DNA of 64,000 bases from Chloroflexota bacterium (GCA_031370565.1 JANMQO010000163.1:7576-71575), one strand, 5' to 3'; numbered from the stretch's first letter, positions 22,884-53,536 are shown. Numbers and translations are program-made. The notes: generated by a model from the letters alone, not told the origin.

Positions 22884-22884
22884 C

Positions 22885-37640: not shown

Positions 37641-38798
37641 TCAGTTCCCGCCGGCCGTGACCGTGACGGAGCCCTTGGTGAAGCCAGCGCCCTTGACGTC
37701 CATGTCGCTCAGGGTAGCCAGCGCCTTCTGTGCGAGATCCGTCCGGACGGCGGCCGGATCCGGGTCCTTGGTGATGACCTTGCCGGCCTTGGCGATGGCC
37801 ACGGTCTGCGTGTAGAAGCCGGCCGGCAGGATGCCGATCCCGTCCGGCGCCGGCCAGATGAGCGGGTTGACCTCGTTCATCTGCCAGGCCTGATGGCCCT
37901 TGCCCAGCGTGCTGCCGGACTTGAGCACAATGTCGACGCAGTCGGCGGCATTGTCGCGGCAGTGGATCCAGCCCTTGAAGGTGGCCGCCAGGAAGCGGAC
38001 CGCGATGTCCTCGTTGCCCGGCTTGGCCAGCCAGCTGGCTCGGGCGAAGATCGCGTCCTGAAGCATCGCCGTCCCGACCTGGTTGTAGTCGATGACGTTG
38101 AGATCCTCGGGCTGGTACAGCTTGCCGGTGGCCGGGTTGGTCGCCTCGAGCACCTGTGCGTACTCGTTGTAGATCATCGCCTCAGCCACATCGATCTGCT
38201 TGTTGAGCAGGAGCGACATGTCAAAGGGCTGGATGACCTTCTCGTAGCCCTTGCCCGCCTCGAGCCCAGCCTTGTTGGCCCCAGCGGTCACCTCGAACTC
38301 GTTGCCGAAGTCCCAGACGCCCACCTTCTTGCCCTTGAAGTTGGCGGGGCTGGTGATGCCGTTGTCTTTCCAGGATACTGAGCGCGTGCCCGAACGCTGG
38401 TAGATCTGGGCGATGTCCACGAGGTCCGAGCCGGCCTCGCGGGCCTGCAGCACCTTGGGCACCCAGGCGAGCGTGAACTCAGGGCCGTCGGGCGCCGAGC
38501 CGACCTGCTGCGGTACGACATCGGGACCGCCCGGCAGGATGGTGACGTCGAGCCCGGCGTCCTTGTAGTAGCCCAGCGCAGCCGCAGCGAGCTCGCCGGC
38601 GAACTGCGCCTGCGGGACCCATTGGAGCTGGACGCGGATCTTGACCATGGCCGGTGCCGCGCTGGCCGGTGCCTGTGAGGTGGTCGCCTGGCTGGCCGGT
38701 GCCGCCGATGGCGCCGTACTGGCGGCTCCCGGCGAACACGCCGCGGCAAGGAACAGGGCGCCCGCACTCAGGGCGCTCAGTTTCCGAATGGACTGCAT
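37641..38798 (-). CDS. ABC transporter substrate-binding lipoprotein, NMT1/THI5-like (SsuA/TauA/ThiY family)
   Basis: Lipobox LAAAC. NMT1-like fold residues. Last gene of the AT-permease-ATPase-permease-SBP operon. Confidence 0.75.
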   Translation of the reverse strand: MQSIRKLSALSAGALFLAAACSPGAASTAPSAAPASQATTSQAPASAAPAMVKIRVQLQWVPQAQFAGELAAAALGYYKDAGLDVTILPGGPDVVPQQVGSAPDGPEFTLAWVPKVLQAREAGSDLVDIAQIYQRSGTRSVSWKDNGITSPANFKGKKVGVWDFGNEFEVTAGANKAGLEAGKGYEKVIQPFDMSLLLNKQIDVAEAMIYNEYAQVLEATNPATGKLYQPEDLNVIDYNQVGTAMLQDAIFARASWLAKPGNEDIAVRFLAATFKGWIHCRDNAADCVDIVLKSGSTLGKGHQAWQMNEVNPLIWPAPDGIGILPAGFYTQTVAIAKAGKVITKDPDPAAVRTDLAQKALATLSDMDVKGAGFTKGSVTVTAGGN

Positions 38799-38936
38799 CG
38801 ACTCCTCCTACCTTCTGGGCCCCTGGACGGGACCGACCTTGTTTGACTGCATCGGAGCACCCGATGCTACTCGACGGCGAGCCTCGTGACGACCCCCACC
38901 AGAACGAACCGGCCGAGCCGCCCGTCGGCCGCCCTG

Positions 38937-39803
38937 TCAGCCTCCCTCGCGGACTGAGCCGTGCCACGGGATGAGCAGGCGCTCGAGGCCGGCCACGACC
39001 AGGTAGAAGACGATCCCCATCGCGGCGCCCAGGACAATCGCGGCCCAGGTCACGTCGAACCGCAGCGCGCTCGCACTCTGGACGATCTGGCGGCCCAGGA
39101 CCAGGTCCACGCCACCGAAGTACTCGCCTACGATCGCCCCAATGAGGCTCAGCGTCGTAGCGATCTTGAGCGCGGTGAAGAAGAACGGCAGCGCATTGGG
39201 GATCCGGACCTTGCGCAGGATCGTCCACTCGCTGGCCGCGTAGGAGCGCATGAGCTCGACCGCCGAGGCGTCCACCTGGGACAACCCGCGGGTCACGTTG
39301 ATCATGACCGGGAAGAACACCAGGATTGCCACGATCATCATCTTGGACAGCGGGCTGAGCACGCCGAACCAGTTGTTCATGATCGGCGCAAAGGCGATGA
39401 TCGGGACGGCGTTGGCCGCCACCGCCCAGGGCAGCAGGGCGTCTCTGGCCGTCGCGAAACGCGAGGTCACGAAGGCCACGAGCGTCCCCGCCAAGGTCCC
39501 GATCGCCAGCCCGCCGACGGCCTCGACGAACGTCGTGCGCGCCGACGGCACGAGCGTCCCGGCACGCTCGATGAGCGCCGCGGCGATCGCCGACGGCTTG
39601 GGCAGGATGAACTTCTGCAGCCCGAGCGCGCTGACCGCAAACTCCCACAGGACGAGCCCGGCCACGAACACGACGATGGCCGGGGCGTAGTAGCGCAGGG
39701 TGTCCCAGGCGCGCGAGGCGGCGGAGCGGCGCGCGGGCGACCGCGGACCAGGCACCGACGAGCCAGGCGCCGGCCGGTCGGCAGCCCGCGGGTCGGCCAT
39801 CAA
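38937..39803 (-). CDS. ABC transporter permease (NitT/TauT family)
   Basis: Six-TM BPD_transp_1. It overlaps the ATPase stop. Confidence 0.75.
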   Translation of the reverse strand: MMADPRAADRPAPGSSVPGPRSPARRSAASRAWDTLRYYAPAIVVFVAGLVLWEFAVSALGLQKFILPKPSAIAAALIERAGTLVPSARTTFVEAVGGLAIGTLAGTLVAFVTSRFATARDALLPWAVAANAVPIIAFAPIMNNWFGVLSPLSKMMIVAILVFFPVMINVTRGLSQVDASAVELMRSYAASEWTILRKVRIPNALPFFFTALKIATTLSLIGAIVGEYFGGVDLVLGRQIVQSASALRFDVTWAAIVLGAAMGIVFYLVVAGLERLLIPWHGSVREGG

Positions 39804-40648
39804 CCCACTGCACCTTCCGCTGCGGTCCGCGCCGGCGAGCCCGGGCCACCGACCGTCGCGACCTGCGCCTGTGGTCCGTGCAGGGCTTCGCGCACCTGGG
39901 TCACCAGCCCGAAATAGCGCGGTTGCTCGCGCGTCTCGAAGCCACGTGGTCGAGGCAGGTCAGCCTCGATCACCTGGCTGATCCGGCCCGGTCGGGCGCT
40001 CATGACAACCACCCGTGACGACAGGAACACCGCTTCGGGGATGGAGTGGGTGACGAACACGATCGTGGTGCCGGTCCGCTCCCAGATCCGGAGCACCTCC
40101 GAGTTCATCCGTTCACGGGTCATCTCGTCGAGGGCGCCGAACGTTTCGTCCATGAGCTGGATCGACGGCTCGAAGGCGAGCGCCCGGGCGATCGCCACCC
40201 GCTGCTGCATGCCACCTGAGAGCTGGTACGGGTGGTGGCGCAGGAACCCCTGCAGCTCGACCAGCTCGAGCATCTCGCGGGCCCGGGCAATGCGTTCCGA
40301 CTTCGGCCGACCGAGGATCTCGAGCGGCAGCGCGACGTTTTCTTCGACCGTCCGCCAGTCGAACAGGACCGGCGCCTGGAAGACCATCCCGTAGTCCCGA
40401 TCGAGGCGCGCCCGGTGGGCCGTCTTGCCATTGACCGTGACCGTCCCGGCCGATGGCGTGGTGAGGTCGCCGATGAGCCGCAGCAGGGTTGACTTGCCAC
40501 AACCCGATGGGCCGATGAGCGACACGAATTCGCCTCGGCGGATCTCCAGGTCGATCCCCTGCAGCGCCTGGGTGCCAGCCTGGCCGGCGACCTCGAACGT
40601 CTTGTCGACGCCGGCGATCGTGACGACGGCGGGTGCGGACTCGGTCAT
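39800..40648 (-). CDS. ABC transporter ATP-binding protein (NitT/TauT family, SsuB/TauB-like)
   Basis: [37 protein letters not shown]. Confidence 0.8.
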   Translation of the reverse strand: MTESAPAVVTIAGVDKTFEVAGQAGTQALQGIDLEIRRGEFVSLIGPSGCGKSTLLRLIGDLTTPSAGTVTVNGKTAHRARLDRDYGMVFQAPVLFDWRTVEENVALPLEILGRPKSERIARAREMLELVELQGFLRHHPYQLSGGMQQRVAIARALAFEPSIQLMDETFGALDEMTRERMNSEVLRIWERTGTTIVFVTHSIPEAVFLSSRVVVMSARPGRISQVIEADLPRPRGFETREQPRYFGLVTQVREALHGPQAQVATVGGPGSPARTAAEGAVG

Positions 40649-40664
40649 GACTGGCTCGGACCTC

Positions 40665-41558
40665 TCAGACAGCCGGGGCTTGGCGACCGCGCAGGACGAG
40701 CGTCTCGACCAGACGGATCAGCAGGAAGAAGGCGATCCCGACCAGGGCGGACACGAAGATTGTCGCCCAGAGTTTGGCGGGAAATGTGATGTAGGCCTGG
40801 TTGAAGTTGATGATCGCGCGTCCCAGCCCGTCCGGGATGCCGCCCGGTCCTTCCCCGATGATCGCCCCGACGATGCTCGCCGTGGCCGAGATCTTGAGCG
40901 CGGTGAAGAGGTACGGCAGCGAGGCCGGCAGGCGCAGCTTGCGGTAGGTCGCCCAGCGCGAGCCCGCGTACGAGCGCATAAGCTCGAGCGCCCGCGGGTC
41001 GGGCGACCGCAGGCCCCGGATCCCGGCGATGGTCACTGGAAAGAAGGTCAGGTAGGTGGCGATGATGACGACCGAAACGACCGACTGGCCGAAGGCGAAG
41101 GCGATCATCGGGGCGAGCGCCACGATCGGGATCGTCTGGCTGGCGATGACGTAGGGCACGAACGCCCGCTCGAGCAGCCGGAAGTGGACGAACAGGCTGG
41201 CCAGACCCAGGCCCAGCGCGGCACCCAGGGCGAACCCGATAGCCGCCTCCCGCCAGGTGTAGAGCGCCGCGCCGACGAGGAACTGCCCCAGGCTGATCGG
41301 CGACTCGCGCTGGGCGGGCGCGCCGAACACCGAGACGATCGTCCAGACGTGCGGCAGGTTGAGGTCGCTCGCGAAAAAGATGCGCAGCGGCGGGTTCCAG
41401 AGAACCTGCTCGCCGCTGCGCCAGGGATCCCCACCGACGAACTTGACCCCCTCCCACAAGCCAAGGATGAGGACGAAGAAGCCCACGACGGTGAGCCCCT
41501 GGCGGACGAGCCCGGCCTGGCTGCCGGACTTGCCGAACCCGGCCCGTGGGCCTGCCAT
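40665..41558 (-). CDS. ABC transporter permease (second NitT/TauT-type membrane subunit)
   Basis: Six-TM permease. Its start abuts the aminotransferase stop (1-nt gap). Confidence 0.75.
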   Translation of the reverse strand: MAGPRAGFGKSGSQAGLVRQGLTVVGFFVLILGLWEGVKFVGGDPWRSGEQVLWNPPLRIFFASDLNLPHVWTIVSVFGAPAQRESPISLGQFLVGAALYTWREAAIGFALGAALGLGLASLFVHFRLLERAFVPYVIASQTIPIVALAPMIAFAFGQSVVSVVIIATYLTFFPVTIAGIRGLRSPDPRALELMRSYAGSRWATYRKLRLPASLPYLFTALKISATASIVGAIIGEGPGGIPDGLGRAIINFNQAYITFPAKLWATIFVSALVGIAFFLLIRLVETLVLRGRQAPAV

Positions 41559-42896
41559 CTAGCGGCGAACCGCCTCGTCCGCCAGCTCGAGGGCGGCGTC
41601 GATGATGGCGAAGCCCTCGTCGAGTTGCTGCTCGGTGATGCACAGCGGCGGATTGGTGTGGATCGAGTTGTTGGCGATCAGGGTGTACAGGCCGTGGTCG
41701 CGCAGGTACTTCCCGATGGCCTTCATCTCATCGCTCGTGCCGTTGAACGGCGTGAGCGGGTCGTACGGCTCGCGAGTGCGGACGAGGTCGATGATCCCGA
41801 ACAGGCCCAGGTTGCGATACGCCCCGACCGAGGGGTGGCGGGCATACAGCCGCTCGTGGTGGGCGCGCATGACCGGCCCGAGGCGAGCGGCGTTGTCGAT
41901 CAGGCCGTCCTCCTCGTAGACCCGGATCGTGGCGAGCGAGGCAGCCAGGCTGATCGGGTGGCTGCTGTAGGTCAGTCCGCCGTAGAACATCGTCGTGTCG
42001 AACTTCTCGGCGATCGCCCGACGCATCGCCACGGCGCCCAGCGGCAGGTACGAGCTGGTCAGGCCCTTGGCCATCGTCATCAGGTCCGGGACCACGCCGG
42101 CATGGTCCACCGCGAACCACTTGCCGGTCCGCCCGAAGCCGGCCATGACCTCGTCGGCGACCATCAGGATCTGGTGGCGATCGCAGATCTCGCGGACGCC
42201 CTGGAGGTAGCCATCGGGCGGGATGAGGATCCCGTTCGTGCCCACGATCGTCTCGAGGAAGACGGCGGCGATCGTATGGGCGCCCTCGTAGCGGATGACG
42301 TCCTCGAGGCCCTGCAGCGATTCGGCCACCGGGCGGGGCTCCTTCTCGCCCCAGCGGTGGGTGTCCGGATAGCGCACGACGCCCCAGATGCCGGGCTCGT
42401 TCGCCCAGCGGCGAGGATCGCCGGTCAGGGTCATGGCGCCCAGCGTGGCCCCGTGGTACGAGCGGTAGCGCGCCAGGATCTTGGTCCGGCCCGTGTAGTG
42501 GCGGGCCAGCTTGATCGCGTTCTCGATCGCCTCCGCGCCGCCGAGCGTGAAGAAGACCTTGTCCAGGTCGCCCGGCAGGATCTCGGCCAGCTTCGCCCCG
42601 AGCCGGGCCCTGGGTTCCGTGGCGAAGGCCGGCTGGACGAACTGCAGCTTCGTCGCCTGCTCGGTGATGGCGTCGATGACCCGCCGGTCCCCATGGCCGA
42701 TGTTGACCGACATGAGCTGGCTGTTGAAATCGATGATCCGGCGACCGTCGGGCGTATACAGGTAGATCCCCTCGGCCCGGTCGATGGCGATCGGGTCGAT
42801 GGCCCCCTGGACGGACCACGAGAAGAAGGTATGTTCGCGCGATAGCGCGACGATCTGCTCGCCGGTCAGTCGTTCAGGCAGGGTGGTGGTCGCCAT
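41559..42896 (-). CDS. class-III PLP aminotransferase (omega-transaminase; candidate beta-alanine/3-aminoisobutyrate--pyruvate transaminase by context)
   Basis: 445 aa, aspartate aminotransferase family. The substrate is assigned only by proximity to the pyrimidine-catabolism genes and mmsA. Confidence 0.75.
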   Translation of the reverse strand: MATTTLPERLTGEQIVALSREHTFFSWSVQGAIDPIAIDRAEGIYLYTPDGRRIIDFNSQLMSVNIGHGDRRVIDAITEQATKLQFVQPAFATEPRARLGAKLAEILPGDLDKVFFTLGGAEAIENAIKLARHYTGRTKILARYRSYHGATLGAMTLTGDPRRWANEPGIWGVVRYPDTHRWGEKEPRPVAESLQGLEDVIRYEGAHTIAAVFLETIVGTNGILIPPDGYLQGVREICDRHQILMVADEVMAGFGRTGKWFAVDHAGVVPDLMTMAKGLTSSYLPLGAVAMRRAIAEKFDTTMFYGGLTYSSHPISLAASLATIRVYEEDGLIDNAARLGPVMRAHHERLYARHPSVGAYRNLGLFGIIDLVRTREPYDPLTPFNGTSDEMKAIGKYLRDHGLYTLIANNSIHTNPPLCITEQQLDEGFAIIDAALELADEAVRR

Positions 42897-43218
42897 CGAA
42901 GCACCTCGAGTCCGTCGGTCCAGGCGGGCGGGGCCCTCGGTCTTCGGCCTCCGTCCGTATTCGGCCCCCGCGGTCTTCGGCCAGTGCGGCTGGCGCCCAC
43001 GGCGGGGGGTCGATGACGAGGAGCGCCTCAGTCGACTGCCGACCGCGACATCCCACCCTGCATCGGAGTGGTCATTAGATCACAATCGGGATGCGCCCGA
43101 CGTCTGGTCGGTGCGAGTCGGGGCGGGTCCGTGCGGTCCCCGGGGTCGTGGCGCCGCGCGCCCCCCAACGTGGGCTACCATGTCCGTACCTCGGATCGGC
43201 TGCACTGGCGAGGAACCC

Positions 43219-46155
43219 ATGCGCGCTCATCAGCCCCGGAGGGTCGCCGCCGCCCTCATCGCGAGCCTGTTCGCGGCCGGCCTCCTCGGCCCCGTCTCGA
43301 TCGCCCGTGCCACCATCAGCGTCCCGTTCGCCGCCGCCGGCACGGAACCGATCGGGCCGGGCACCGTCCACAGTTGGGGCCAACTCAGCACCGATTCGGC
43401 CGGCATCCAGGTGGTCAACCTAGTTGAGGCCAACCTGGCCGACCCGACCATCCATCTGGAGACGCTCCTCTCGAACGGGACGGCGACGGGCCTCGAGCCA
43501 ACCTCGGCCATGGCCACCAACGCCACGACCGAGGGCCACCGGGTGGTCGCCGCGGTCAACGGCGATTTCTGGAGCGGCCAGAGCGCTGGTGCCCTGGCCG
43601 CCCCGAACGGCCTGCAGGTGCACCTTGGCGAGCTGCTCGTGGCGCCGCGCGGTGGTCGCCCCGCGATCGGGGTCAGCGCCGGGGGCGTGGCCCAGATCGG
43701 AACGGTGACCGAGCGGCTCACGCTCGACACCGGCGCCGGCGTGCTCCTCTCGATCACGCGCATGAACCAGGCCCGCGGCGGCGCTGACCTTGTCCTGTAC
43801 ACCCCCCGGTTCGGCGTTGCCACGGCGACGACGGATGGCGGGACGGAGGTGGTCCTGACGGGCGTCGCCGGGCCGATCGGGCCGAACGGCTCCTACCCGG
43901 CCACGGTCCAATCGATCACGGTCGGGACCGGCAACGCAGCGCTCGCCCCGGGCACGGTCGTGCTGTCCGGAGCCGGTGCCGGCGCAACCGCACTGAGCGC
44001 CCTGATCCCGGGCCAGAGCGTGACCCTGACCACGGCGATCACGCCCGGCTGGGAGAGCGTGACGGAGGCGATCAGCGGGGGCCAGTGGCTGGTCCAGGCT
44101 GGCCAGGTCAACGTGTCACCGCCGTGGTACGCGGCGACCCAGCATCACGCTCGAACGGGCGTCGGGCTGACCGCCGATGGGCGCCTGCTGCTGGCCACCG
44201 TCGATCGCGGTCCCGGTGGCTACAGTGGCGGCGTCCGCCTCGACGAATTCGCCCAGCTGTTCCTCGGCCGGGGGGCGGTGACCGCCATCAACCTTGACGG
44301 TGGCGGCTCCACGACGATGGTCGCACGACGGCCCGGCGACGAACTCGCCTCGCTGGTCAACCGCCCGTCGGACGGCCAGGAGCGCTACGTTTCGAACGCG
44401 CTGGCGCTAGTCAGCACGGCGGCCACCGGACCACTGGCCGGGATCGGCATTCGACCGGCACCGAGCCGGCTCGTCCTGGGAACCTCCACGGCATTCACGG
44501 CTGTCGGCTGGGACGCGGCGATGAACGGGGTGGTGGTCGATCCAGGCAGCGTCGGCTGGTCGGCCAGCGCCGGCACGATCGACGCCAGCGGACACTTCCA
44601 GGCCAGCGCCCCTGGCCCGATCACCATCCAGGCGAGCGCTCAGGGCCAGGTCGGCCAGCTGTCCGCGGAGGTCGTGGCCGACACGATCCCGCCGGTCGCG
44701 GGTGCCCCATACCTGTCGTTCCTGCCGAACGCGCAGGCCGGCCAGCAGCGCATCTGGGTCCGGGTGGACTGGCCCGCCGCGACGGATATCGGCAGTGGGG
44801 TGGCAGCGTACGGGCTGTGGTTGAGCACGGACGACGGTCCCTACGTGGCAGTGCCGTTGTCCGCCCCGCTGGTCCGCTCGACCACCCTGCAGCTCGCCCC
44901 CGGACCGGCCTATCGATTCGCCGTGGACGCCACGGACGCCGCCGGCAATGTCGGGGCGAAGGTGGCCGGCAACCTCGTCCGGCAACTCGCGGTCCAGGAA
45001 ACAGGCGGTGCCATCACCTACAGCGGACCCTGGGTCCGGGGGGTGGGCACCGGCTACTACGGCGGGGGGATCCGGACCGCCTATTCGGCCCGGGCGAACG
45101 CTGCGTTCCGTTTCAGCGGCTCGGACGTCGCCTGGGTGTCTGCGCTCGGCCCGACCCGCGGCTCCGCGCAGGTGCTGCTCGACGGCAAGCTCGTGGCCAC
45201 CATCGACTTGTTCCGCCCGACCAACGTCGGTCGACGAGTCGTGTATCGCGCCGGCTGGCCGACCATCGGCAGCCATCGGCTGGAAGTCCGACCGCTGGCC
45301 ACGACGGGCCACCCAAGGGTCGATATCGACGCGTTCCTGATCGAAACCGACGCGGCCGCAGACCCGGTCCTCGTCGGGGCCGGCGACATTGCCGCCTGCG
45401 GGACGACCGGTGCCAGCTTCACAGCGGCGCTCATCAAGACGATCCCCGGCACGGTCTTCACGGCGGGCGACAACGCCTACCCGGTGGGCTCAGCGGCCGA
45501 CTTCGCCAACTGCTACGACCCGACCTGGGGCGCGTTCAAGGCGCGCACCCGACCGGCGCCCGGCAACCACGATTGGGTCACGCCAGGAGCAGCCGGCTAC
45601 TTCAGCGCGTTCGGGCCACGTGTCGGTTCGTCCAGCGCCAGCTGGTACGCCTACAACCTGGGCAGTTGGCGGATCTACGCGCTGGACAGCGACTGCGATC
45701 AGCAGGGCGGCTGCGGCAGCGGCTCGCCGATGGAGGCATGGCTGCGTCGAGACCTCGCGGCCAACCCACGCCAGTGCGTCCTGGCATATTGGCACCATCC
45801 CCGCTTCAGCTCCGGCATCCACGGCAACGCCACCAACATGCAGACGATCTGGGCGGACCTGCAGACGGCTGGCGCCGAGATCGTGATCAATGGTCACGAT
45901 CATGACTACGAGCGGTTCGCGCCACAGAATGCGACCGGCGGCCTGGACTTGGCCCATGGCATGCGCGAATTCGTGGTCGGCACCGGCGGCGCCGAGCTGC
46001 GCTCGTTTGCCACCGTCCAGCCGAATAGCCAGGTTCGCCGGGCCGGCGTCCTGGGCGTCCTCAAGCTGATCCTCCGGCCAGCCGGCTACGAATGGTCGTT
46101 CATTCCGGTGGCCGGTTCGTCCGGAGCCGACAACGGCTGGGGCTCCTGCCACTGA
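43219..46155 (+). CDS. secreted multidomain protein: signal peptide, phosphodiester glycosidase (NAGPA/DUF2233-like), Ig/FN3-like repeats, C-terminal calcineurin-like metallophosphoesterase
   Basis: Signal peptide MRAHQPRRVAAALIASLFAAGLLGPVSIARA. AINLDGGGSTTM is a phosphodiester-glycosidase motif. The C-terminal GDIAACG...GDNAY...GNHDW...WHHP...GHDHDYER are metallophosphatase motifs I to V. The 145-codon upstream part of the track ORF overlaps the AT gene and was rejected. Confidence 0.75.
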   Translation: MRAHQPRRVAAALIASLFAAGLLGPVSIARATISVPFAAAGTEPIGPGTVHSWGQLSTDSAGIQVVNLVEANLADPTIHLETLLSNGTATGLEPTSAMATNATTEGHRVVAAVNGDFWSGQSAGALAAPNGLQVHLGELLVAPRGGRPAIGVSAGGVAQIGTVTERLTLDTGAGVLLSITRMNQARGGADLVLYTPRFGVATATTDGGTEVVLTGVAGPIGPNGSYPATVQSITVGTGNAALAPGTVVLSGAGAGATALSALIPGQSVTLTTAITPGWESVTEAISGGQWLVQAGQVNVSPPWYAATQHHARTGVGLTADGRLLLATVDRGPGGYSGGVRLDEFAQLFLGRGAVTAINLDGGGSTTMVARRPGDELASLVNRPSDGQERYVSNALALVSTAATGPLAGIGIRPAPSRLVLGTSTAFTAVGWDAAMNGVVVDPGSVGWSASAGTIDASGHFQASAPGPITIQASAQGQVGQLSAEVVADTIPPVAGAPYLSFLPNAQAGQQRIWVRVDWPAATDIGSGVAAYGLWLSTDDGPYVAVPLSAPLVRSTTLQLAPGPAYRFAVDATDAAGNVGAKVAGNLVRQLAVQETGGAITYSGPWVRGVGTGYYGGGIRTAYSARANAAFRFSGSDVAWVSALGPTRGSAQVLLDGKLVATIDLFRPTNVGRRVVYRAGWPTIGSHRLEVRPLATTGHPRVDIDAFLIETDAAADPVLVGAGDIAACGTTGASFTAALIKTIPGTVFTAGDNAYPVGSAADFANCYDPTWGAFKARTRPAPGNHDWVTPGAAGYFSAFGPRVGSSSASWYAYNLGSWRIYALDSDCDQQGGCGSGSPMEAWLRRDLAANPRQCVLAYWHHPRFSSGIHGNATNMQTIWADLQTAGAEIVINGHDHDYERFAPQNATGGLDLAHGMREFVVGTGGAELRSFATVQPNSQVRRAGVLGVLKLILRPAGYEWSFIPVAGSSGADNGWGSCH

Positions 46156-46234
46156 GCCGCCGCGCTCCACCCGGCCAAGGGTGTACCCTCACCACTTCTT
46201 CCTGCCACCACACCCGCTTGACGTGAGGGTCGAG

Positions 46235-47086
46235 ATGCCGCGAATCGTCCGAGGAGCCCTGGTCCAGGCAACCTGGACCGGGGACAAGGAATCGATGATC
46301 CAGAAGCACGAGGCGCATGCCTACGAAGCGGCTCGGCAGGGCGCCCAGATCATGCTCTTCCAGGAACTGTTCTACGGACCCTACTTCTGCCAGGTCCAGG
46401 ACCCCCAGTACTACAGCTACACCGAGCTCATCCCGGACGGCCCGACCACCCGGCGGATGCAGGACCTGGCCAAGCAGACGGGGATGGTCCTGGTCGTCCC
46501 GATGTATGAAGAGGACGGCACCGCCAGCGGGATGTACTACAACACCGCCGCGGTCATCGACGCGGACGGCCGCTACCTGGGCAAGTACCGCAAGACCCAC
46601 ATCCCGCAGGTCAAGGGCTTCTACGAGAAGTTCTACTTTCGGCCCGGCAACCTGGGCTATCCGGTCTTCGAGACCGCCGTGGGCAAGGTCGGCGTGTACA
46701 TCTGCTATGACCGCCACTTCCCGGAGGGTGCCCGGGCGCTGGGTCTGAACGGCGCGGAGATGGTATTCATCCCGAGTGCCACCAGCCGTGGCCTGTCCGA
46801 GTATCTGTGGCGCATCGAGCAGGTCAGCCACGCGGTCGCCAACGGCTACTTCGTGGGGACGATCAACCGAGTTGGCATCGAGGCGGACTACGGCGACGAC
46901 GACTTCTACGGGCAGAGCTACTTCGTCAACCCACGCGGCCAGTTCATCGGTGAGGTCGGCAGCGCCCATGACGAGGAGCTCATGATCCGGGAGATGGACC
47001 TCGATATGGTCACCGAGGTGCGCCAGACCTGGCAGTTCTATCGCGATCGACGACCGGACGCCTACGCGGACCTGGTCCGACCGTAG
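46235..47086 (+). CDS. beta-ureidopropionase (nitrilase superfamily, eukaryote-like type)
   Basis: The E-K-C triad context is ...FQELFYGPYFC..., GKYRKTHIP, ICYDRHFPE. FIPSATSRGLSEYLWRIEQVSHAVANGYFVGTINRVGIE closely parallels human UPB1 ([41 protein letters not shown]). ATG 46235 has a GAGGG SD. Confidence 0.8.
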   Translation: MPRIVRGALVQATWTGDKESMIQKHEAHAYEAARQGAQIMLFQELFYGPYFCQVQDPQYYSYTELIPDGPTTRRMQDLAKQTGMVLVVPMYEEDGTASGMYYNTAAVIDADGRYLGKYRKTHIPQVKGFYEKFYFRPGNLGYPVFETAVGKVGVYICYDRHFPEGARALGLNGAEMVFIPSATSRGLSEYLWRIEQVSHAVANGYFVGTINRVGIEADYGDDDFYGQSYFVNPRGQFIGEVGSAHDEELMIREMDLDMVTEVRQTWQFYRDRRPDAYADLVRP

Positions 47087-47116
47087 GCGGCCCGCCAAGC
47101 GGAGGACCTCGCCTCG

Positions 47117-48127
47117 ATGCAGTTTGGATTCACACTCAAGCCGAGCCACTCGATCGAGCGCACGCTGACGCTCACCCGGCAGGCCGAGGCCGCCGGATTC
47201 GCGTACGGCTGGCTGTTCGACTCGCACGTCTTGTGGCGGGACCCGTACCCGTTGCTGACCCTCATGGCGGGCGCCACCGAGCAGTTGCGCCTGGGCACCT
47301 GCGTGACGAACCCGGCGACCCGCGAACCGTCGGTGACGGCCTCGGCTCTGGCCGTCCTCGATGAGCTGAGTGGCGGCCGGATGGACCTGGGCATCGGTCG
47401 AGGGGACTCGGCGCGACGAGTCCTGGGCAAGCCACCGACCACGATGGCCACCCTCGAGGAGGCGATCGGCGTCATCCGCGACCTCGTCGAGGGCCGCACC
47501 GTGACCTACGAAGGGACGGAGCTCAACCTGCCCTGGACGGGATCGTGGAAGCTGCCCGTGTGGGTCGCGGGCTACGGCCCGATGGCGCTGGCCATGACCG
47601 GACGGGTGGCCGATGGCGTCATCCTGCAGCTGGCCGACCCGGACCTCATCCGCTGGTTCGTCGGCCAGATCCGTGCGGCGGAGGCAGCGGCCGGCCGCCC
47701 GGCGGGCTCGGTCCAGGTGCAGTCGGCCGCACCGGCCCACTTCGGCGATCTCGAACTGTGCCGCGAGCGGACGCGCTGGTTCCCGGCGCTCGTCAGCAAC
47801 CATGTCGTCGACCTGGTCAACAAATACCCGCGCGAACGGCTGCCCGAATCGCTCACGGGCTACGTCCGCGACCGGGCCGGCTACGACTACCTCCATCACG
47901 CCGAAGTCGGCTCGTCCAACGCCGGTTTCGTGGGCGACGACGTGACGGATCGCTTCTGTGTCCTCGGTAGCGTGGCTGACCACCTGGCCAAGCTGCACGA
48001 ACTGGCGGACGCCGGGGTCGACCAGTTCAACATCTACCTGATGAACGGGGATGAGGAAGCGGTCCTCGAAGCGTACGGGCGGGAAATCATCCCGGTGATG
48101 CGGGATGTCGCGGCCGCCCGGGCCTAG
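47117..48127 (+). CDS. luciferase-like monooxygenase (LLM) family, F420-dependent oxidoreductase type
   Basis: 336-aa TIM-barrel LLM. The N-terminal MQFGFTLKPSHSIERTLTLTRQAEAAGFAYGWLFDSHV and the GIGRGDS block are typical of the F420-dependent LLM class. Confidence 0.7.
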   Translation: MQFGFTLKPSHSIERTLTLTRQAEAAGFAYGWLFDSHVLWRDPYPLLTLMAGATEQLRLGTCVTNPATREPSVTASALAVLDELSGGRMDLGIGRGDSARRVLGKPPTTMATLEEAIGVIRDLVEGRTVTYEGTELNLPWTGSWKLPVWVAGYGPMALAMTGRVADGVILQLADPDLIRWFVGQIRAAEAAAGRPAGSVQVQSAAPAHFGDLELCRERTRWFPALVSNHVVDLVNKYPRERLPESLTGYVRDRAGYDYLHHAEVGSSNAGFVGDDVTDRFCVLGSVADHLAKLHELADAGVDQFNIYLMNGDEEAVLEAYGREIIPVMRDVAAARA

Positions 48128-49940
48128 GCGACTGGACGCGCCGATCACGAACGACAGCCCGGCCGCCGCTGATCCGGAGGCGGCGGTCCGGATCGTGCTT
48201 CTTGGGCCGCCACGGGTCGAAGCGGACGGCGGACGGCGCCGCCTGCCGGGGCACAAACCCTGGGCGCTCCTGACGATCCTCCTCCTGGAGTCGGCCGGCT
48301 CGACCAGACGCGAGCTGGCGGAGCGCATCTGGCCCGCCGCGGACAATCCACTCGGCGCCGTCCGCTGGGCGCTGCTCCAGGTCCGCCGAGCCATCGCACC
48401 AGCGCGGGTCGATGAGGTCGACGGTCGACTGCGCATCGCCAACCGCGCGGCGCTCGCCGTGGACGCCGATGTTGTCCTGGCGGGCAGGTTGGAGGCTTCC
48501 GATGCTGACCGCATCGTGGGCGGCGACCTACTCGAAGGGTTCGCCTTCGATGGCGCGCCGAATCTGGAGCAGTGGCTGGCGCTGCAGCGCGCCCGCGTCC
48601 GTTCGGCCAGTGCCGAAGGGCTGCGCTGGGCCGCCACGGTGCTGTCCGACGCAGATCCCGAGCGGGCCATCTCCCTGGCAGAGCGCGCCGCGCAGCTCGA
48701 CCCGTTCGACGACGCCGTCCACGAGCTGATCGTCTACTGCCATGTCCGGCGCGGTGACCGGCGCGCCGCCCGGGACCACGTCGAGCGCACAACACGCCTG
48801 TACCGGGCCGAACTGGACGAAGACGCGCCACTGTCCATCGCACGGCCACTGGAGCGGCCTTCGACGATCGATCGAGACGACGTCAGCTTGTCGACGGCCG
48901 ATCCGTCGCTGACCGGTGGCCTCGAGGCGGCGACGCTCCTCGAGCTGGCCCGGATGCGACTCGAGAGCGGCGACTACGACTCCGCGGTCGAGCTGGGGCG
49001 GCGGGCTGTCGCGGCGGCGGCGGCGGGGCGGGACGGCGCCCTCGAGGGCCGGGCCACGCTCGATCTGGCCACAACCCTTATCCACTCCGTTCGCGGTCGG
49101 GACCGGGAGGCCCACGGCCTGGTTCGGCGCGCGCTGCAGCTGGCCACGGCACTGGGTGATCGCGGGATGGCCGCCGATGCCGAGCGCGAGATCGGCTACC
49201 TGCACTTCCTGGAGGCGGACTATGGCGCCGCTGAGGCCGCCCTGGAACGAGCCATCCGGATCGCGACGCTGGACGGTAACCAGGTCGCACTGGGAAGGGC
49301 TCTCACGATCCTGGGCGCCTGCCGCTCGGACCGCGCGGACTATGCGTCGGCGGAGCCCACCCTGCGACTGGCCGTCGACCGATTGATCGAGGTCGGCGAC
49401 GAGCGCTGGCGTGCGTATGCACTGTCATTCATCGCACGGGTCGAACTCCGCACAGGCCGAGTAGAGCAGGCGCTGCTGACGGCGACCGCGTCGATCGCGG
49501 CGGCGCGCGCCTCTGGTTGGCTATCCTTGGTGCCTTGGCCGATGGCCATTCTGGGCGAAGCACAGCTGCTCGGGGCCGACATCCGGTTGGCCTCGGCCAC
49601 CTTCGGCCAGGCCTATCTCCTGGCCCGTGAAATCGGCGATCCGTGCTGGCAGGCCGTCGCCCTGCGTGGCATGGCGCTCGTCGCGCAACAGGACGGCGAT
49701 CCGGATCGCGCCCGCGGGCTGCTGGCACAGGGCCTGCGCTGCGCGCGCGAACAGCCGGACACATACACTTGGGCGACGGCGGCGCTCCTGACCGATCTGG
49801 TCGGCCTGGAGGGTGGCGCGAGCCGAGCGCACCTGGCTGAGGCCATTCGGATCGTCACGCGGGGTCCCATGGCGGACTTGGCCAGGCGGGTTTTGGACGC
49901 AGCCAGCTCGCAAACGCTGGACCAAACGGTCGATCCGTAG
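48105..49940 (+). CDS. SARP/AfsR-family regulator (OmpR-type wHTH plus BTAD) with C-terminal TPR repeats
   Basis: VRIVLLGPPRVEADGGRRRLPGHKPWALLTILLLESAGSTRRELAERIW, BTAD-like helices, then TPR-like Ala/Leu-rich repeats. The start is uncertain (48105 overlaps the LLM gene by 23 nt; GTG 48195 is an alternative). Confidence 0.7.
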   Translation: MSRPPGPRRLDAPITNDSPAAADPEAAVRIVLLGPPRVEADGGRRRLPGHKPWALLTILLLESAGSTRRELAERIWPAADNPLGAVRWALLQVRRAIAPARVDEVDGRLRIANRAALAVDADVVLAGRLEASDADRIVGGDLLEGFAFDGAPNLEQWLALQRARVRSASAEGLRWAATVLSDADPERAISLAERAAQLDPFDDAVHELIVYCHVRRGDRRAARDHVERTTRLYRAELDEDAPLSIARPLERPSTIDRDDVSLSTADPSLTGGLEAATLLELARMRLESGDYDSAVELGRRAVAAAAAGRDGALEGRATLDLATTLIHSVRGRDREAHGLVRRALQLATALGDRGMAADAEREIGYLHFLEADYGAAEAALERAIRIATLDGNQVALGRALTILGACRSDRADYASAEPTLRLAVDRLIEVGDERWRAYALSFIARVELRTGRVEQALLTATASIAAARASGWLSLVPWPMAILGEAQLLGADIRLASATFGQAYLLAREIGDPCWQAVALRGMALVAQQDGDPDRARGLLAQGLRCAREQPDTYTWATAALLTDLVGLEGGASRAHLAEAIRIVTRGPMADLARRVLDAASSQTLDQTVDP

Positions 49941-49994
49941 GGTTCATCGCCAGAGTCGGGCTCATTGCCGACCGCAGGAGCAGGAGGACGAACG

Positions 49995-50240
49995 ATGCAG
50001 TTCATGGACGTGCACAACGGGTTCGTAGGGGTGACGGCGGAGCAGCTCCAGGCCGCGCACGACGCGGATCTGGCCATCGAGGCCGAGGAGGGCGTCCATT
50101 TCCAGCAAGCCTGGCTCGACCCGGTCAGCGGCAAGGTCTTCTGCTTGGCCGAAGGCCCGAGCAAGGAGGCGGTCCAGCGCATCCACACGCGCGCCGGTCA
50201 CCCCGCCGATGAGATCCACGAGCTGACCGTCTCCGTCTGA
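49995..50240 (+). CDS. DUF4242-family small protein (SCO4226-like)
   Basis: AGGAGGA SD 6 nt upstream. MQFMDVHNGFVGVTAEQLQAAHDADLAIEAEEGVHFQQAWLDPVSGKVFCLAEGPSKEAVQRIH resembles DUF4242 members. Confidence 0.6.
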   Translation: MQFMDVHNGFVGVTAEQLQAAHDADLAIEAEEGVHFQQAWLDPVSGKVFCLAEGPSKEAVQRIHTRAGHPADEIHELTVSV

Positions 50241-50333
50241 GCACAGCGCGGGAGCGGGGTGACGTGCGGTACCCCGCTCCATCCTCCACAATGACGGACA
50301 TGAACCGGCGCCGCCCCTGCGGAGGAAATCTCG

Positions 50334-51731
50334 ATGCGCACACTCATCACGAATGGCACCATCGTTAGTGCGGACGGCTCGACCATCGCCGACGTGCTCA
50401 TCGACGGCGAGATCATCGTCCAGATCGGCCGAGACCTGGTCGGCGCCGGGGTGACGGCCGACGAGACGATCGACGCGACGGGCCGGTACGTGATCCCTGG
50501 CGCCATCGACGTCCATACGCACATGGAGCTGCCCTTCGGCGGAACGTCCGCCAAGGACACCTTCGAGACGGGCACCCGGGCGGCGGCGTTCGGCGGGACG
50601 ACCTCGATCGTCGACTTTGCGGTCCAATCGCGCGGCAAATCGCTCCGGGAGGGGCTTGACGCCTGGCACGCCAGGGCCGAGGGCAACGCGGTGGCCGACT
50701 ACGGGTTCCACATGATCATGTCCGACGTGAATGACGCGACCCTGGCCGAGATGGACCAGTTGGTCGCTGAGGGCGTGCCCGATTTCAAGCTGTTCACCGC
50801 CTACCCGGGCGTCTTCTACAGCGACGATGGGGCGATCTTCCGGGCGATGCAGCAGACCCGCCGCAACGGCGGACTGATCATGATGCATGCCGAGAACGGG
50901 ATGGCCATCGACGTCGTCGCAGCCGACGAGATCGCGGCCGGCCACACGGACCCGTACTACCACGGTGTGGCCCGCCTGCCCATCTTCGAGGGGGAGGCGA
51001 CCAACCGAGTCATCCGCCTGGCCGAGGCGGCCGGCGTGCCCGTGTACATCGTCCACCTCTCGGCGCGCGACGCGCTCAACGCCGTGCGCGAGGCGCGCGA
51101 TCGCGGCGTCAAGGCGTACGCGGAGACCTGCCCGCAGTACCTGTTCCTGTCGCTGGACGACATGGCCAACGGCTTTGAGGGCGCGAAGTTCGTCTGCTCG
51201 CCGCCCCTGCGGACTGCCGACCACCAGGCGGAGCTGTGGACCGGACTGGTCAAGGACGACCTGCAGCTGGTCGCGACCGACCATTGCCCGTTCGACTTCC
51301 ACGGCCAGAAGGAACTCGGCCGGGGCGACTTTCGCAAGGTCCCCAATGGTCTGCCTGGCGTCGAGGATCGAGTCGACCTGCTCCACGATGGCGGCGTGGT
51401 CGGCGGCCGGATGACCCGTGAGCGCTGGGTTGAGGTGATCTCCACGGCACCGGCCAGGATGTTCGGCATGTACCCGCGCAAAGGCTCGGTCTCGATCGGC
51501 GCCGATGCTGACCTGGTGATCTACGATCCGAACGCCCGCCGGACGATCAGCGCGGCCAGTCACCACATGAACGTCGACTACTCGTGCTATGAGGGCCGCG
51601 AGGTCCAGGGGCGCGCCGACATCGTCCTGTCGCGCGGTTCGATCATCGTCCGCGACGGCCAGTTCACCGGCCGCAAGGGCCACGGCCAGTTCATCCGACG
51701 CGCCCCCGCCGAGTTCGCGCGCAACAACTGA
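50334..51731 (+). CDS. dihydropyrimidinase / D-hydantoinase (cyclic amidohydrolase)
   Basis: GGAGGA SD. GAIDVHTHMELPFGGT metal-binding motif and carbamylated-Lys region. 465 aa. Confidence 0.85.
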   Translation: MRTLITNGTIVSADGSTIADVLIDGEIIVQIGRDLVGAGVTADETIDATGRYVIPGAIDVHTHMELPFGGTSAKDTFETGTRAAAFGGTTSIVDFAVQSRGKSLREGLDAWHARAEGNAVADYGFHMIMSDVNDATLAEMDQLVAEGVPDFKLFTAYPGVFYSDDGAIFRAMQQTRRNGGLIMMHAENGMAIDVVAADEIAAGHTDPYYHGVARLPIFEGEATNRVIRLAEAAGVPVYIVHLSARDALNAVREARDRGVKAYAETCPQYLFLSLDDMANGFEGAKFVCSPPLRTADHQAELWTGLVKDDLQLVATDHCPFDFHGQKELGRGDFRKVPNGLPGVEDRVDLLHDGGVVGGRMTRERWVEVISTAPARMFGMYPRKGSVSIGADADLVIYDPNARRTISAASHHMNVDYSCYEGREVQGRADIVLSRGSIIVRDGQFTGRKGHGQFIRRAPAEFARNN

Positions 51732-51861
51732 CGAGCGGGCCGGCGTGGCCTGCTGGCTCGGCTCGTGGTGGCGGCTCCGCGCGGCGGCTTGGCGTGCCGG
51801 CTCGGCTCGGCTCGGCTAGGCCAGACCCGCCCGCCGGCCGGCTCAGTGGTTCGGTTCGGGA

Positions 51862-53406
51862 CTACCGGCTGCGCGGAAAGCCCAGATCCACCGTGGACGT
51901 GCCCGGGTCCGGCCAGCGCGACGTCACCACCTTTGTCCGGGTGTAGAACTGGATGCCGTCCGGTCCGTACATGTGCAGGTCGCCGAACAGCGACGCCTTC
52001 CAGCCACCGAACGAGTAGTACGCCACCGGTACCGGGATCGGCACGTTGACCCCAACCATCCCGACACTCACGTCGAACTGGAATTGGCGGGCCGCGCCTC
52101 CGTCCCGGGTGAAGATGGCCGTGCCGTTGCCATACGGGTTGTCGTTGATGAGACGGAGCGCCTCCTCATACGTGTCCACCCGGACGATGTTGAGGACCGG
52201 CCCGAAGATCTCGTCCCGATAGCAGTCCATCTCCGGAGTGACGTCATCGATGAGCGAGACACCCAGGAAGAACCCGTCGCGCTGGTACGCCGGATCCTCG
52301 CGGCCGTCGACCACCACCGAGGCCCCCTGTTCGCGCCCGCTGTCGAGGTACGAGGCCACCTTGTCGCGGTGCTCCCGAGTGACCAGCGGCCCCATCTCGG
52401 ACGCCGGATCGGACCCGTCGCCCACCCGGATCTTGGGCAGCCGCGCTCGGATCGCGGCGACCAGCGGGTCCGCCACGCCGCCGACCGCGACCAGCGCCGA
52501 GATCGCCATGCAGCGCTCCCCCGCCGAGCCGTACGCCGCCGACACCGCCGCATCGGCGGCCATCTCGATATCCGCGTCCGGCAGCACGATCATGTGGTTC
52601 TTGGCGCCGCCGAGCGCCTGCACCCGCTTGCCGTTGCGCGTGCCCGTCTCGTAGATGTAGCGGGCGATCGGCGTCGAGCCCACGAACGAGACAGCGGCAA
52701 TGTCCGGGTGGGCCAGGATGGCGTCCACGGCGACCTTGTCTCCGTTGACCACGTTGAACACGCCGTCTGGCAGGCCCGCCTGCTTGAGCAGCTCGGCCAT
52801 CAGCATGGACGCGCCCGGATCCTTCTCGGACGGCTTGAGGATGAAGGTGTTGCCACAGGCGATCGCGTTGGCGAACATCCACATCGGCACCATCGCAGGA
52901 AAATTGAACGGTGTGATCCCGGCGACCACACCCAGCGGCTGGTGGATCGAGTAGACGTCGACGCCGGTCGAGGCCTGCTCCGAGAAGCTGCCCTTGAGCA
53001 ACTGCGGGACGCCGCAGGCGAACTCGATGTTCTCCAGCCCGCGGGCCACCTCACCCAGCGCATCCGAGGTCACCTTGCCGTGCTGCGCCGTGAGCAGCGC
53101 CGCGAGATCCCGGCGGTGCTCGTGGACGAGCTGTCGAATCGTGAACAGGATCTCCGAGCGCTTCGAGAGCGATGTCGCGCGCCACGCCGGAAAGGCCGCC
53201 CTGGCCGTCTGAACGGCGAGATCGAGTTCTTCAGCGCTGGCGAAATCGACCGCGTGCGTCTGCGCGCCGGTGGCCGGGTTGAAGACGGGTCCCTGGCGGC
53301 CCGACGTGCCGACCCTCAGCGTCCCGCCGATCCAATGGTTGATCCGGCTCGGGGCGTCCGAGTCGGACGTCTCTCCGGCGGCTCGCGATGCGGCGACCTG
53401 CGTCAT
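51862..53406 (-). CDS. mmsA: methylmalonate-semialdehyde dehydrogenase (CoA-acylating)
   Basis: ALDH with the MMSDH-specific ALGGAKNHMIVLPDAD, VGVNVPIPVPVAYYSFGGWKASLFGD and HMYGPDGIQFYTRTKVVTSRW blocks. Confidence 0.85.
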   Translation of the reverse strand: MTQVAASRAAGETSDSDAPSRINHWIGGTLRVGTSGRQGPVFNPATGAQTHAVDFASAEELDLAVQTARAAFPAWRATSLSKRSEILFTIRQLVHEHRRDLAALLTAQHGKVTSDALGEVARGLENIEFACGVPQLLKGSFSEQASTGVDVYSIHQPLGVVAGITPFNFPAMVPMWMFANAIACGNTFILKPSEKDPGASMLMAELLKQAGLPDGVFNVVNGDKVAVDAILAHPDIAAVSFVGSTPIARYIYETGTRNGKRVQALGGAKNHMIVLPDADIEMAADAAVSAAYGSAGERCMAISALVAVGGVADPLVAAIRARLPKIRVGDGSDPASEMGPLVTREHRDKVASYLDSGREQGASVVVDGREDPAYQRDGFFLGVSLIDDVTPEMDCYRDEIFGPVLNIVRVDTYEEALRLINDNPYGNGTAIFTRDGGAARQFQFDVSVGMVGVNVPIPVPVAYYSFGGWKASLFGDLHMYGPDGIQFYTRTKVVTSRWPDPGTSTVDLGFPRSR

Positions 53407-53536
53407 GAATGACCTCTCAATGTGCGGCTAACCGGCGTTCTGCAGGCGTCAACGATACCGCCTTGGGCTACGGTCGGGGCGCGGTGGGCCGCGCGGCAGG
53501 CTCAGCGGCAGACGGCGCCCCGACCCACGGACCGAT

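Follow-up and report, generated by a model that had tools for sequence, protein, structure and literature searches.

A Chloroflexota gene encoding a predicted secreted protein that joins a NAGPA-type phosphodiester glycosidase domain to a purple-acid-phosphatase-like metallophosphoesterase domain

In a 64,000-nucleotide stretch of DNA from a Chloroflexota bacterium (GCA_031370565.1 JANMQO010000163.1:7576-71575), to which we refer in its full length as the window, we analyzed the gene at positions 43219 to 46155. The analysis confirms that the gene is genuine and that it encodes a predicted secreted protein of five parts: a signal peptide, a phosphodiester glycosidase domain of the NAGPA/DUF2233 type, Big_2-like and FN3-like spacers, a module resembling carbohydrate-binding modules (CBMs) of the CBM6/35/36 kind, and a C-terminal metallophosphoesterase domain. 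Our preferred reading, to which we assign a probability of about one half, is that of a secreted, modular, glycan-targeted two-enzyme protein acting on an extracellular phosphorylated glycopolymer. A preliminary description made from the sequence had proposed a signal peptide, a NAGPA-type domain, Ig/FN3-like spacers and a metallophosphatase with five motifs, and this architecture is matched by Pfam, by a family profile, by an AlphaFold2 (AF2) model and by Foldseek. The parts are laid out along the gene as follows (aa, amino acids; PDB, Protein Data Bank).

43219..46155, plus strand: coding sequence, 978 aa and stop (ATG 43219, TGA 46155)
43219..43311, plus strand: Sec-type signal peptide, aa 1-31, with predicted cleavage A31/T32 after A-R-A
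43312..44418, plus strand: NAGPA/DUF2233-type phosphodiester glycosidase domain, aa 32-400 (Pfam, PDB profile matches, Foldseek)
44296..44310, plus strand: DGGGS catalytic/sugar-phosphate-binding loop, D360-S364 (conservation, alignment to vertebrate NAGPA)
44419..44688, plus strand: Big_2-like Ig domain, aa 401-490 (family profile, all-beta model)
44689..44994, plus strand: FN3-like domain, aa 491-592 (family profile, all-beta model)
44995..45363, plus strand: CBM6/CBM35/CBM36-like jelly-roll, a putative carbohydrate-binding module, aa 593-715 (model and Foldseek)
45364..46152, plus strand: metallophosphoesterase domain resembling purple acid phosphatases (PAPs), aa 716-978 (Pfam, phmmer, Foldseek, conservation)

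Several kinds of evidence place the N-terminal catalytic part in the NAGPA/DUF2233 family. Pfam PF09992 matches aa 244-397 with 115.8 bits against a cutoff of 25 (E 3e-33). The colinearity of the family profile with Slr0280 across positions 49-369 indicates that this match spans only the C-terminal half of a NAGPA fold into which a beta subdomain (about 100 aa) is inserted, a feature shared with Slr0280 and BPSS2145. Profile matches in the PDB comprise 3ohg, 6ozd, 5h3k and 6pku, and Foldseek returned the same group of structures for the modeled NAGPA part: Slr0280 (5h3k, E 1e-21), BPSS2145 (6ozd, 1e-19), a Bacteroides DUF2233 protein (3ohg, 2e-13) and the vertebrate NAGPA catalytic domains (6pki/6pku at about 1e-9, and also 6u11).

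The active-site region of this domain is strictly conserved. The motif AINLDGGGSTTM lies at aa 356-367, where the preliminary description had placed it, and the flanking ART...DG...AINLDGGGS block is conserved with the NAGPA family. Its DGGGS loop (D360-S364) aligns with the DGGGS of 6pku and 6u11 and is invariant in all 60 of 60 family members; together with N114, D116, E138, R186, R312, D329, S336, R370 and R389 it makes up 14 conserved NAGPA residues that are invariant at this level. In the human enzyme this loop binds the sugar-phosphate, and residues D286 and R316 are essential; NAGPA cuts the glycosidic C1-O bond with phosphate as the leaving group, so that a phosphomonoester is left (PMC13474241). 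The sequence alignment to vertebrate NAGPA ends before R389, which lies 29 residues past D360 (the human spacing is 30) and aligns with an Arg of 3ohg and 6ozd; judged by this spacing and alignment, R389 would be the counterpart of the human phosphate-binding R316. A 2013 study by Das and colleagues reportedly found that a Bacteroides homologue reached only about 1% of the activity that human NAGPA shows on GlcNAc-P-Man (GlcNAc, N-acetylglucosamine; Man, mannose).

The C-terminal domain is matched by Pfam Metallophos (PF00149) at aa 748-897, with 25.0 bits against a cutoff of 21.5 and with 28.5 bits when the domain is scanned alone, which puts both catalytic families above their Pfam cutoffs. 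The five metallophosphatase motifs, GDIA (723), GDNAY (751-754), GNHD (783-784), WHHP (859) and GHDHDYER (893-895), sit at the places first assigned to them. They contain the putative metal ligands D723, D751, Y754, N783, H859, H893 and H895, with H784 as the putative catalytic His, and 56-60 of 60 members retain the PAP-type ligands, among them the Tyr of GDxxY. Searches with phmmer found wheat PAPhy and human and rat PAPs (mammalian ACP5) at E of about 2e-3 to 2e-2, with WHHP and GHDHDYER aligned to WHAP and GHVHAYER of wheat PAPhy. Foldseek listed kidney bean PAP, rat PAP (target-normalized template modeling score, TMt, 0.72) and the diesterase GpdQ (TMt 0.66). The Tyr in GDxxY is a hallmark of purple acid phosphatases and not of diesterases such as GpdQ, and the Tyr of GDNAY would therefore favor a phosphomonoesterase over a GpdQ-type diesterase. 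The FN3-like domain that directly precedes the catalytic domain in classical plant and bacterial PAPs, Pur_ac_phosph_N (PF16656), gave no match even at E 10, the preceding domain being the CBM6/35/36-like one. Within the protein, conservation is highest in the phosphoesterase domain, with a mean identity of 61% versus 47% for the NAGPA domain; the phosphoesterase domain also carries a subfamily-specific GDIAxC motif and six invariant Cys. Together with the signal peptide, these six Cys point to an extracytoplasmic location.

Between the two catalytic domains, where Ig/FN3-like spacers had been described beforehand, lie three beta-sandwiches. The family profile matches Big_2 and FN3 at about aa 406-590: the Big_2-like domain is related to the Big_2 domain of LigA (8gyr, E 5e-6) and to teneurin-like Ig domains, the FN3-like domain to the FN3 domain of chitinase A1 (E 1e-4) and to titin. 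Pfam itself does not bear out these assignments, as its Big_2 match is weak (E 0.1) and a permissive Pfam scan of the spacers gave nothing significant. The third sandwich, aa 593-715, is modeled with confidence when taken alone, with a predicted local distance difference test score (pLDDT) of 91. Foldseek relates it to the xanthan-binding module 7ehg, CBM6E 8j3x and CBM35 2wz8/2w47 with a query-normalized template modeling score (TMq) of 0.65-0.70 and E from 2e-5 to 4e-3; it has no Pfam match and is 13-20% identical to the solved modules, and we regard it as CBM6/35/36-like at the level of the modeled fold only.

The full-length AF2 model, built on 60 homologues, has a mean pLDDT of 86.5 and a predicted template modeling score (pTM) of 0.52, which means that the individual domains are confident and their mutual arrangement is not. 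The modeled domains resemble solved DUF2233/NAGPA and purple acid phosphatase structures.

The extent of the gene is well supported. Its frame is open from stop to stop between 42784 and 46155. The start at 43219 is backed by the lengths of close homologues (P0001, 91% identical, 978 aa; P0002, 86% identical, 977 aa), by gene calls on the contigs of both, which agree with the 978-aa length, and by a GAGGA 7 nt upstream of the ATG; an in-frame ATG 13 codons upstream, at 43180, may be an alternative start. A longer open reading frame from 42784 was rejected, as it would run into the divergent aminotransferase gene (41559-42896, minus strand) and no such extension is used in homologues. The third-position GC content of the gene is 0.85, as is usual for genes of this window, which has about 70% GC overall. 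Our search within the window found no paralogue of the protein, which is present in NCBI without an assigned name.

The signal peptide was judged by eye from R3/R7/R8, the hydrophobic stretch at aa 9-24 and the A-R-A before T32. In the AF2 model residues 1-31 have low pLDDT and are disordered or helical, and the first strand begins at residue 33. The RR of the n-region, a Tat-type feature, is not kept in the family consensus, and the signal peptide region contains no lipobox Cys. Sequence inspection and Pfam scans of the whole protein revealed no SLH, LysM, sortase or lipobox anchor.

To describe how the domains are combined in related proteins, we drew on 533 relatives found by a word-indexed search and ran local domain profiles (hidden Markov models) on 275 retrieved proteins, with the following result (MPE, C-terminal metallophosphoesterase domain).

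NAGPA-Big-FN3-CBM-MPE, the full architecture: 73 of 275 retrieved proteins
NAGPA-Big-FN3-CBM, about 725 aa: 53 of 275 retrieved proteins
FN3-CBM-MPE: 5 of 275 retrieved proteins
MPE alone or in tandem arrays of 2-4: many of the 275 retrieved proteins

At least 73 proteins thus share the full architecture, and named members come from Chloroflexota and 'Candidatus Limnocylindrales' metagenome-assembled genomes, where they are labeled 'phosphodiester glycosidase family protein'. An exhaustive profile search of 1.84 billion cluster representatives found only about 3-4 clusters at 50% identity that match end to end. A match to some portion of the profile at E<=1e-30, for the most part to the phosphoesterase module, was seen in 12,638 proteins. 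We conclude that the exact architecture defines a narrow, lineage-specific family assembled from very common modules. The domain combination had been presented as not being a standard annotated family, which holds in so far as the NCBIfam scan matched no family model and database names are generic; it has to be qualified in that the architecture recurs in the proteins counted above and NAGPA-calcineurin fusions are already in print (PMC11488536).

The phosphoesterase module is also found by itself, in the form of secreted stand-alone proteins with a length of about 300-350 aa and up to 59% identity, in Acidobacteriota, Oxalobacteraceae, Actinomycetota, Gemmatimonadota and others. In many homologues Pro/Thr-rich linkers precede the phosphoesterase domain, which suggests that it is a tethered, independently folding module. 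Seven proteins (P0136, P0140, P0142, P0143, P0145, P0138 and P0141) carry 2-4 tandem GDIAxC-type phosphoesterase modules, some amid many Big_2 repeats, an unusual arrangement.

The NAGPA domain, for its part, is found with other phosphoesterases. Large surface proteins combine it with a classical PAP of the Pur_ac_phosph_N and Metallophos type, as seen in Paenibacillus chitinolyticus (2036 aa, SLH-anchored) and in Gracilibacillus oryzae (2137 aa); the P. chitinolyticus NAGPA domain is 38% identical to that of our protein over 359 aa, its phosphoesterase domain 23%. In the metagenomic relatives P0079 and P0087 a NAGPA-Big-FN3-CBM core with 43-44% identity ends in a PF04185 phosphoesterase, a member of the PLC/AcpA family whose fold is unrelated to the metallophosphoesterase. 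A single NAGPA subfamily is hence joined to three phosphoesterase modules: the GDIAxC PAP-like domain, a classical PAP and PF04185.

Different forms also occupy the same place in the genome. The slot between the aminotransferase and CN-hydrolase genes was compared in different Chloroflexota genomes, where the full-length form is represented by P0038.

L007, 8001-11027: full fusion
L091, 6001-8172 (P0100): NAGPA-only form
L010, 5800-7464: FN3-CBM-MPE form

Just upstream of the L010 form, a different frame contains a segment resembling a signal peptide, and a frameshift or sequencing error is possible there.

From the observed domain identities, conserved active sites, secretion signal, fold matches and recurrent pairing, we infer a substrate, an order of two steps and a physiological role. 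The CBM6/35-like module and the Ig/FN3 spacers would hold the protein on a polysaccharide. The NAGPA-type domain would then cut the glycosidic C1-O bond of a sugar-1-phosphodiester with phosphate leaving; the DGGGS loop, with its D360, and an invariant Arg that is probably R389 would hold the phosphate in position. The sugar would be released and a terminal phosphomonoester left behind, which the binuclear metal centre of the C-terminal PAP-like domain would hydrolyze to inorganic phosphate. As substrates we consider wall or capsular polymers with sugar-1-phosphate linkages likely, with poly(glycosyl-1-phosphate) teichoic acids, the GlcNAc-1-P linkage units between wall polymer and N-acetylmuramic acid (MurNAc), and phosphoglycans in soil necromass as likely candidates. 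The most likely role is the recovery of phosphate and/or sugar as nutrients by a soil Chloroflexota bacterium.

A protein able to cleave first the sugar-phosphodiester and then the phosphomonoester had already been suggested in the preliminary description. The idea is chemically reasonable in view of NAGPA chemistry (PMC13474241), the PAP ligand set and the recurrent pairing, while the substrate and the order of the steps are the parts that we infer. It gains weight from the joining of one NAGPA subfamily to three types of phosphoesterase, as three such partners are hard to explain unless the first product is a phosphate ester worth hydrolyzing.

Several observations weigh against this two-step reading. 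The 53 relatives without a phosphoesterase domain and the 5 with only FN3-CBM-MPE, as well as the presence of full-length, NAGPA-only and FN3-CBM-MPE forms in one syntenic slot, indicate that the coupling is not obligatory. A pTM of 0.52 gives no prediction of how the two active sites are placed relative to each other. The counterparts of E226/T227, which recognize GlcNAc in human NAGPA, cannot be aligned, and the sugar specificity can accordingly not be read from the sequence. The literature searched contained no enzymology for any family member and no physiological substrate of any bacterial NAGPA-family protein. Finally, the neighboring genes belong to pyrimidine catabolism or are unrelated, and this context gives no functional hint.

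One alternative takes the protein for two independent activities on one scaffold, that is, a general secreted phosphatase or phosphodiesterase (for nucleic acids, phospholipid head groups or organic phosphorus esters) tethered to a glycan-binding NAGPA protein, with no substrate handed over. The phosphoesterase module does belong to a very large, promiscuously shuffled family that occurs alone, as tandem arrays with 2-4 copies and fused in many other ways; it has been gained or lost at the orthologous locus, and GpdQ-type diesterases are also among its structural neighbors. Random shuffling, however, is a poor explanation for the recruitment of three phosphoesterase types to one NAGPA subfamily, and from what is known of the families the GDNAY Tyr ligand is a PAP signature rather than that of a GpdQ-type diesterase. 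We consider this alternative unlikely, though it deserves to be kept in mind.

A further alternative leaves the biochemistry as it is and concerns its control. The gene would encode a Pho-regulon exoenzyme, induced by phosphate limitation through PHO boxes in the 322-bp upstream region and part of a regulon for scavenging inorganic phosphate. Secreted phosphatases are typical Pho-regulon members, and the window does contain genes of this type (pstS, pstB, two permease-type genes, phoU, phnWX, GDPD and PhoU_div/Pit). Their arrangement relative to the gene, together with that of its immediate neighbors, is as follows.

461-6230: phnX, phnW-like and ABC transporter genes (phosphonate-type)
10383-14998: pstS, two permease-type genes, pstB and phoU
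22191-23075: GDPD
24922-25653: PhoU_div
29858-30988: Pit
37641-42896 (minus strand) and 46181-53427: pyrimidine/beta-alanine catabolism-like cluster around the gene, with an NMT1-type ABC transporter, a class-III aminotransferase (41559-42896, minus strand), a CN-hydrolase, an F420-dependent LLM oxidoreductase (TIGR03842), a dihydropyrimidinase (TIGR02033) and a methylmalonate-semialdehyde dehydrogenase (TIGR01722)
42897..43218, plus strand: divergent intergenic region of 322 bp between the class-III aminotransferase and the gene, presumed promoter and 5' leader
42934..42983, plus strand: three tandem copies, 16-17 nt each, of CCnnCGGT(C/A)TTCGGCC

The earlier characterization of the window as packed with Pho-regulon-type genes is true for its first half. 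The gene's own neighbors are catabolic instead, and Pho-type genes come no closer than 12 kb, beyond a DEAD-box helicase gene, proS, gltX and genes for asparaginase and upp, several of them housekeeping genes. The position of the gene is kept in relatives of 91%, 57%, 48% and 39% identity, with the catabolic cluster retained in L001, L004, L007 and L091; other relatives adjoin lysine-biosynthesis or unrelated genes. In none of ten distinct relatives' loci examined (0 of 10) is a Pho gene adjacent. The PF04185 variant P0087 is alone in adjoining a second phosphoesterase gene (also PF04185), a point in favor of the Pho-regulon reading.

The upstream region likewise offers no PHO box. The 'ggtcttcggcc' repeats in which one had been suspected correspond to the three tandem copies listed above, and we reject them as a PHO box: their period is 16-17 nt and not the 11 nt typical of PhoB/PhoP boxes, their copy number varies between near-identical strains (3 in the window and in L001, 4 in L003), they are absent from the relatives of 57% and 48% identity, and none of the remaining intergenic regions of the window contains the motif. 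They also lie 38-87 nt from the aminotransferase start (42896), nearer to it than to the start of our gene, which places them in the leader or promoter of the aminotransferase gene.

The organism may have a PHO box elsewhere in the window. Just upstream of pstS, at 10315-10353, four GTTCAC-like units (GTTAAC / GGAAAC / GACCAC / GTTCAT) follow each other at an exact spacing of 11 nt, an array that is unique within the window and a candidate for the organism's PHO box. Four GTTCAC units at 11-nt spacing resemble Gram-positive PHO boxes. GTTCAC and GTTCACC, 22 nt apart, are also seen at 3112-3140 in the divergent promoter of the phnW/phnX-like genes and the phosphonate-type ABC transporter, and may be a second PHO-like site. 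A scan for the pstS-type box upstream of our gene gave best scores at chance level (1.4-3.8 matches expected) and, upstream of 10 relatives, nothing above chance; it is a weak test, as the PhoB/PhoP motif of the host phylum may differ.

Homologues from other phyla gave a similar picture. Upstream of 12 proteobacterial stand-alone phosphoesterase homologues, the best sites for E. coli-type PhoB boxes have 3-7 mismatches of 14, with only L028 suggestive, and upstream of 7 Paenibacillus/Gracilibacillus fusions Bacillus-type PhoP repeats score not above dinucleotide shuffles. Upstream of the NAGPA-PAP genes at L055, L072 and L073 (Paenibacillus/Gracilibacillus) we noticed a shared palindrome TTTACAAAATGTATTGTAA and a conserved leader segment GGAGGTGGAGTT(T/A)ACAAG, both of which may be regulatory sites.

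With no linkage to pst/pho genes in the window or in the ten relatives' loci and no PHO-like box above chance, the sequence tests speak against Pho-regulon membership of the gene, as first proposed, and leave Pho control unsupported rather than refuted. Of the earlier proposal of an extracellular phosphate-scavenging exoenzyme, the scavenging role remains plausible while the Pho-regulon argument fails. We therefore regard induction as part of a Pho regulon as improbable.

Some further features of the surroundings were noted. A scan of the intergenic region for sigma-70 consensus and terminator gave no match, and Rfam matched no family anywhere in the window. An AT-rich near-palindrome, GTGGTCATTAGATCAC, stands out at 43068-43083, about 140 nt upstream of the start in a leader of about 70% GC; it is identical in the relatives of 91% identity, not alignable in more distant ones, and could be an operator or promoter element. 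In the catabolic cluster the TIGR03842 oxidoreductase scores 427 bits (cutoff 295) and no PydA-type dihydropyrimidine dehydrogenase was found among the cluster genes scanned; that the F420 enzyme might take the dihydropyrimidine dehydrogenase step is no more than an idea. A gene for a 611-aa TPR protein (48105-49940) lies between the F420 oxidoreductase and the dihydropyrimidinase and is missing there in L001-L003, the relatives of 91% identity. At 31003-31734 (minus strand) an orphan OmpR-family response regulator is encoded with no adjacent histidine kinase; it scores below the cutoffs for both MtrA (261 bits versus 300) and PhoB (242 versus 296).

It is less probable again that the protein serves to remodel the producer's own envelope or exopolysaccharide (EPS), trimming or turning over a phosphodiester-linked wall polymer or EPS of its own and not foreign polymers. 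Related Bacillota proteins carry SLH cell-wall anchors and so act at the producer's surface, and for ShfP, an extracellular calcineurin-like enzyme of B. subtilis, the predicted target is a constituent of the matrix on the producer's own cell surface (PMC11488536). The absence of any such anchor from our protein and of adjacent polysaccharide-biosynthesis genes in any locus examined argues against this, and the label 'exopolysaccharide biosynthesis protein', which JGI gives to some members on the basis of COG, is an automatic transfer and not evidence. Antagonistic wall-stripping, in which competitors' wall teichoic acids or secondary polymers would be freed from peptidoglycan by cutting the GlcNAc-1-P linkage unit in interbacterial conflict, is very improbable: NAGPA domains do occur in predicted Bacillota conflict proteins with TelC-like lipid-II phosphatases and variable binding domains (PMC12419801), but toxin-delivery, immunity or polymorphic-toxin features were not seen here, the gene position is stable and vertically inherited down to 48% identity, and the binding domains are not diversified across 60 homologues.

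Returning to the two-enzyme reading, taken alone our result is a correctly recognized domain fusion within an existing, generically annotated family. Its interest lies in the fact that bacterial NAGPA/DUF2233 proteins are widespread, and that the fusion to CBM-like and PAP-like modules, together with the pairing of this NAGPA subfamily with two further phosphoesterase types in other proteins, yields a testable two-step hypothesis for sugar-1-phosphate-linked glycopolymers, of uncovering followed by dephosphorylation. If two-step degradation holds, a further enzyme class would take part in breaking down teichoic-acid-like necromass and in the phosphorus cycling that abundant uncultured soil Chloroflexota carry out. 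More tentatively, and with clear reservations, we suggest that the three modules were recruited separately (the GDIAxC PAP-like one by Chloroflexota, a classical PAP by Bacillota and PF04185 by further uncultured bacteria) and mark a conserved, hitherto unrecognized extracellular two-step mineralization of glycosyl-1-phosphate-linked polymers (teichoic-acid-type wall polymers, capsules, phosphoglycans) to sugar and phosphate. If true, this would provide the first physiological substrate class for bacterial NAGPA-family proteins and a new contributor to soil organic-phosphorus turnover.

Domain by domain, the protein can be set against well-known enzymes. Its identity to vertebrate NAGPA is about 15% with a significant fold match, and it lacks the propeptide, EGF stalk and membrane anchor of the vertebrate enzyme. 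With the plant PAPs 1kbp/4dhl, wheat PAPhy 6gja and mammalian ACP5 1qfc/1ute it shares the seven-residue ligand pattern D / D..Y / N(H) / H / H.H at marginal sequence similarity (phmmer E of about 2e-3), and it differs from classical plant and bacterial PAPs in having no Pur_ac_phosph_N domain and in having GDIAxC and six invariant Cys. Compared to its sister forms, NAGPA-Big-FN3-CBM (about 725 aa) and NAGPA-PF04185, it shows 39-46% identity over the first 715 aa or so with the same domain order, whereas their C-terminal catalytic module is missing or swapped for PF04185.

As a whole, the protein resembles a radiation that has been described before. According to Updegrove et al. (2024), secreted calcineurin-like phosphoesterases form a vast radiation in which they are combined with Ig, FN3 and carbohydrate-binding domains; the authors expressly name NAGPA, the phosphodiester glycosidase, as a fusion partner of some of them and predict teichoic acids, extracellular DNA or lipid head groups as targets (PMC11488536); the lipocone paper by Burroughs and Aravind describes NAGPA paired with TelC-like phosphatases in Bacillota (PMC12419801). 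The idea that NAGPA acts at the cell surface side by side with a phosphoesterase has thus been published before. Compared by published architecture description alone, our protein is, like the ShfP/YvnB radiation, a secreted calcineurin-like phosphoesterase with Ig, FN3, carbohydrate-binding and NAGPA domains. The Paenibacillus and Gracilibacillus proteins (NAGPA...Pur_ac_phosph_N-Metallophos...SLH) belong to the type described there (PMC11488536), while the protein studied here, beyond the low identity of its phosphoesterase domain to that of the Paenibacillus fusion, is compact (978 aa), unanchored and from Chloroflexota. What is specific to it is this compact unanchored Chloroflexota architecture with its CBM6/35-like module and GDIAxC-type PAP-like domain, and the existence of three alternative phosphoesterase partners for one NAGPA subfamily.

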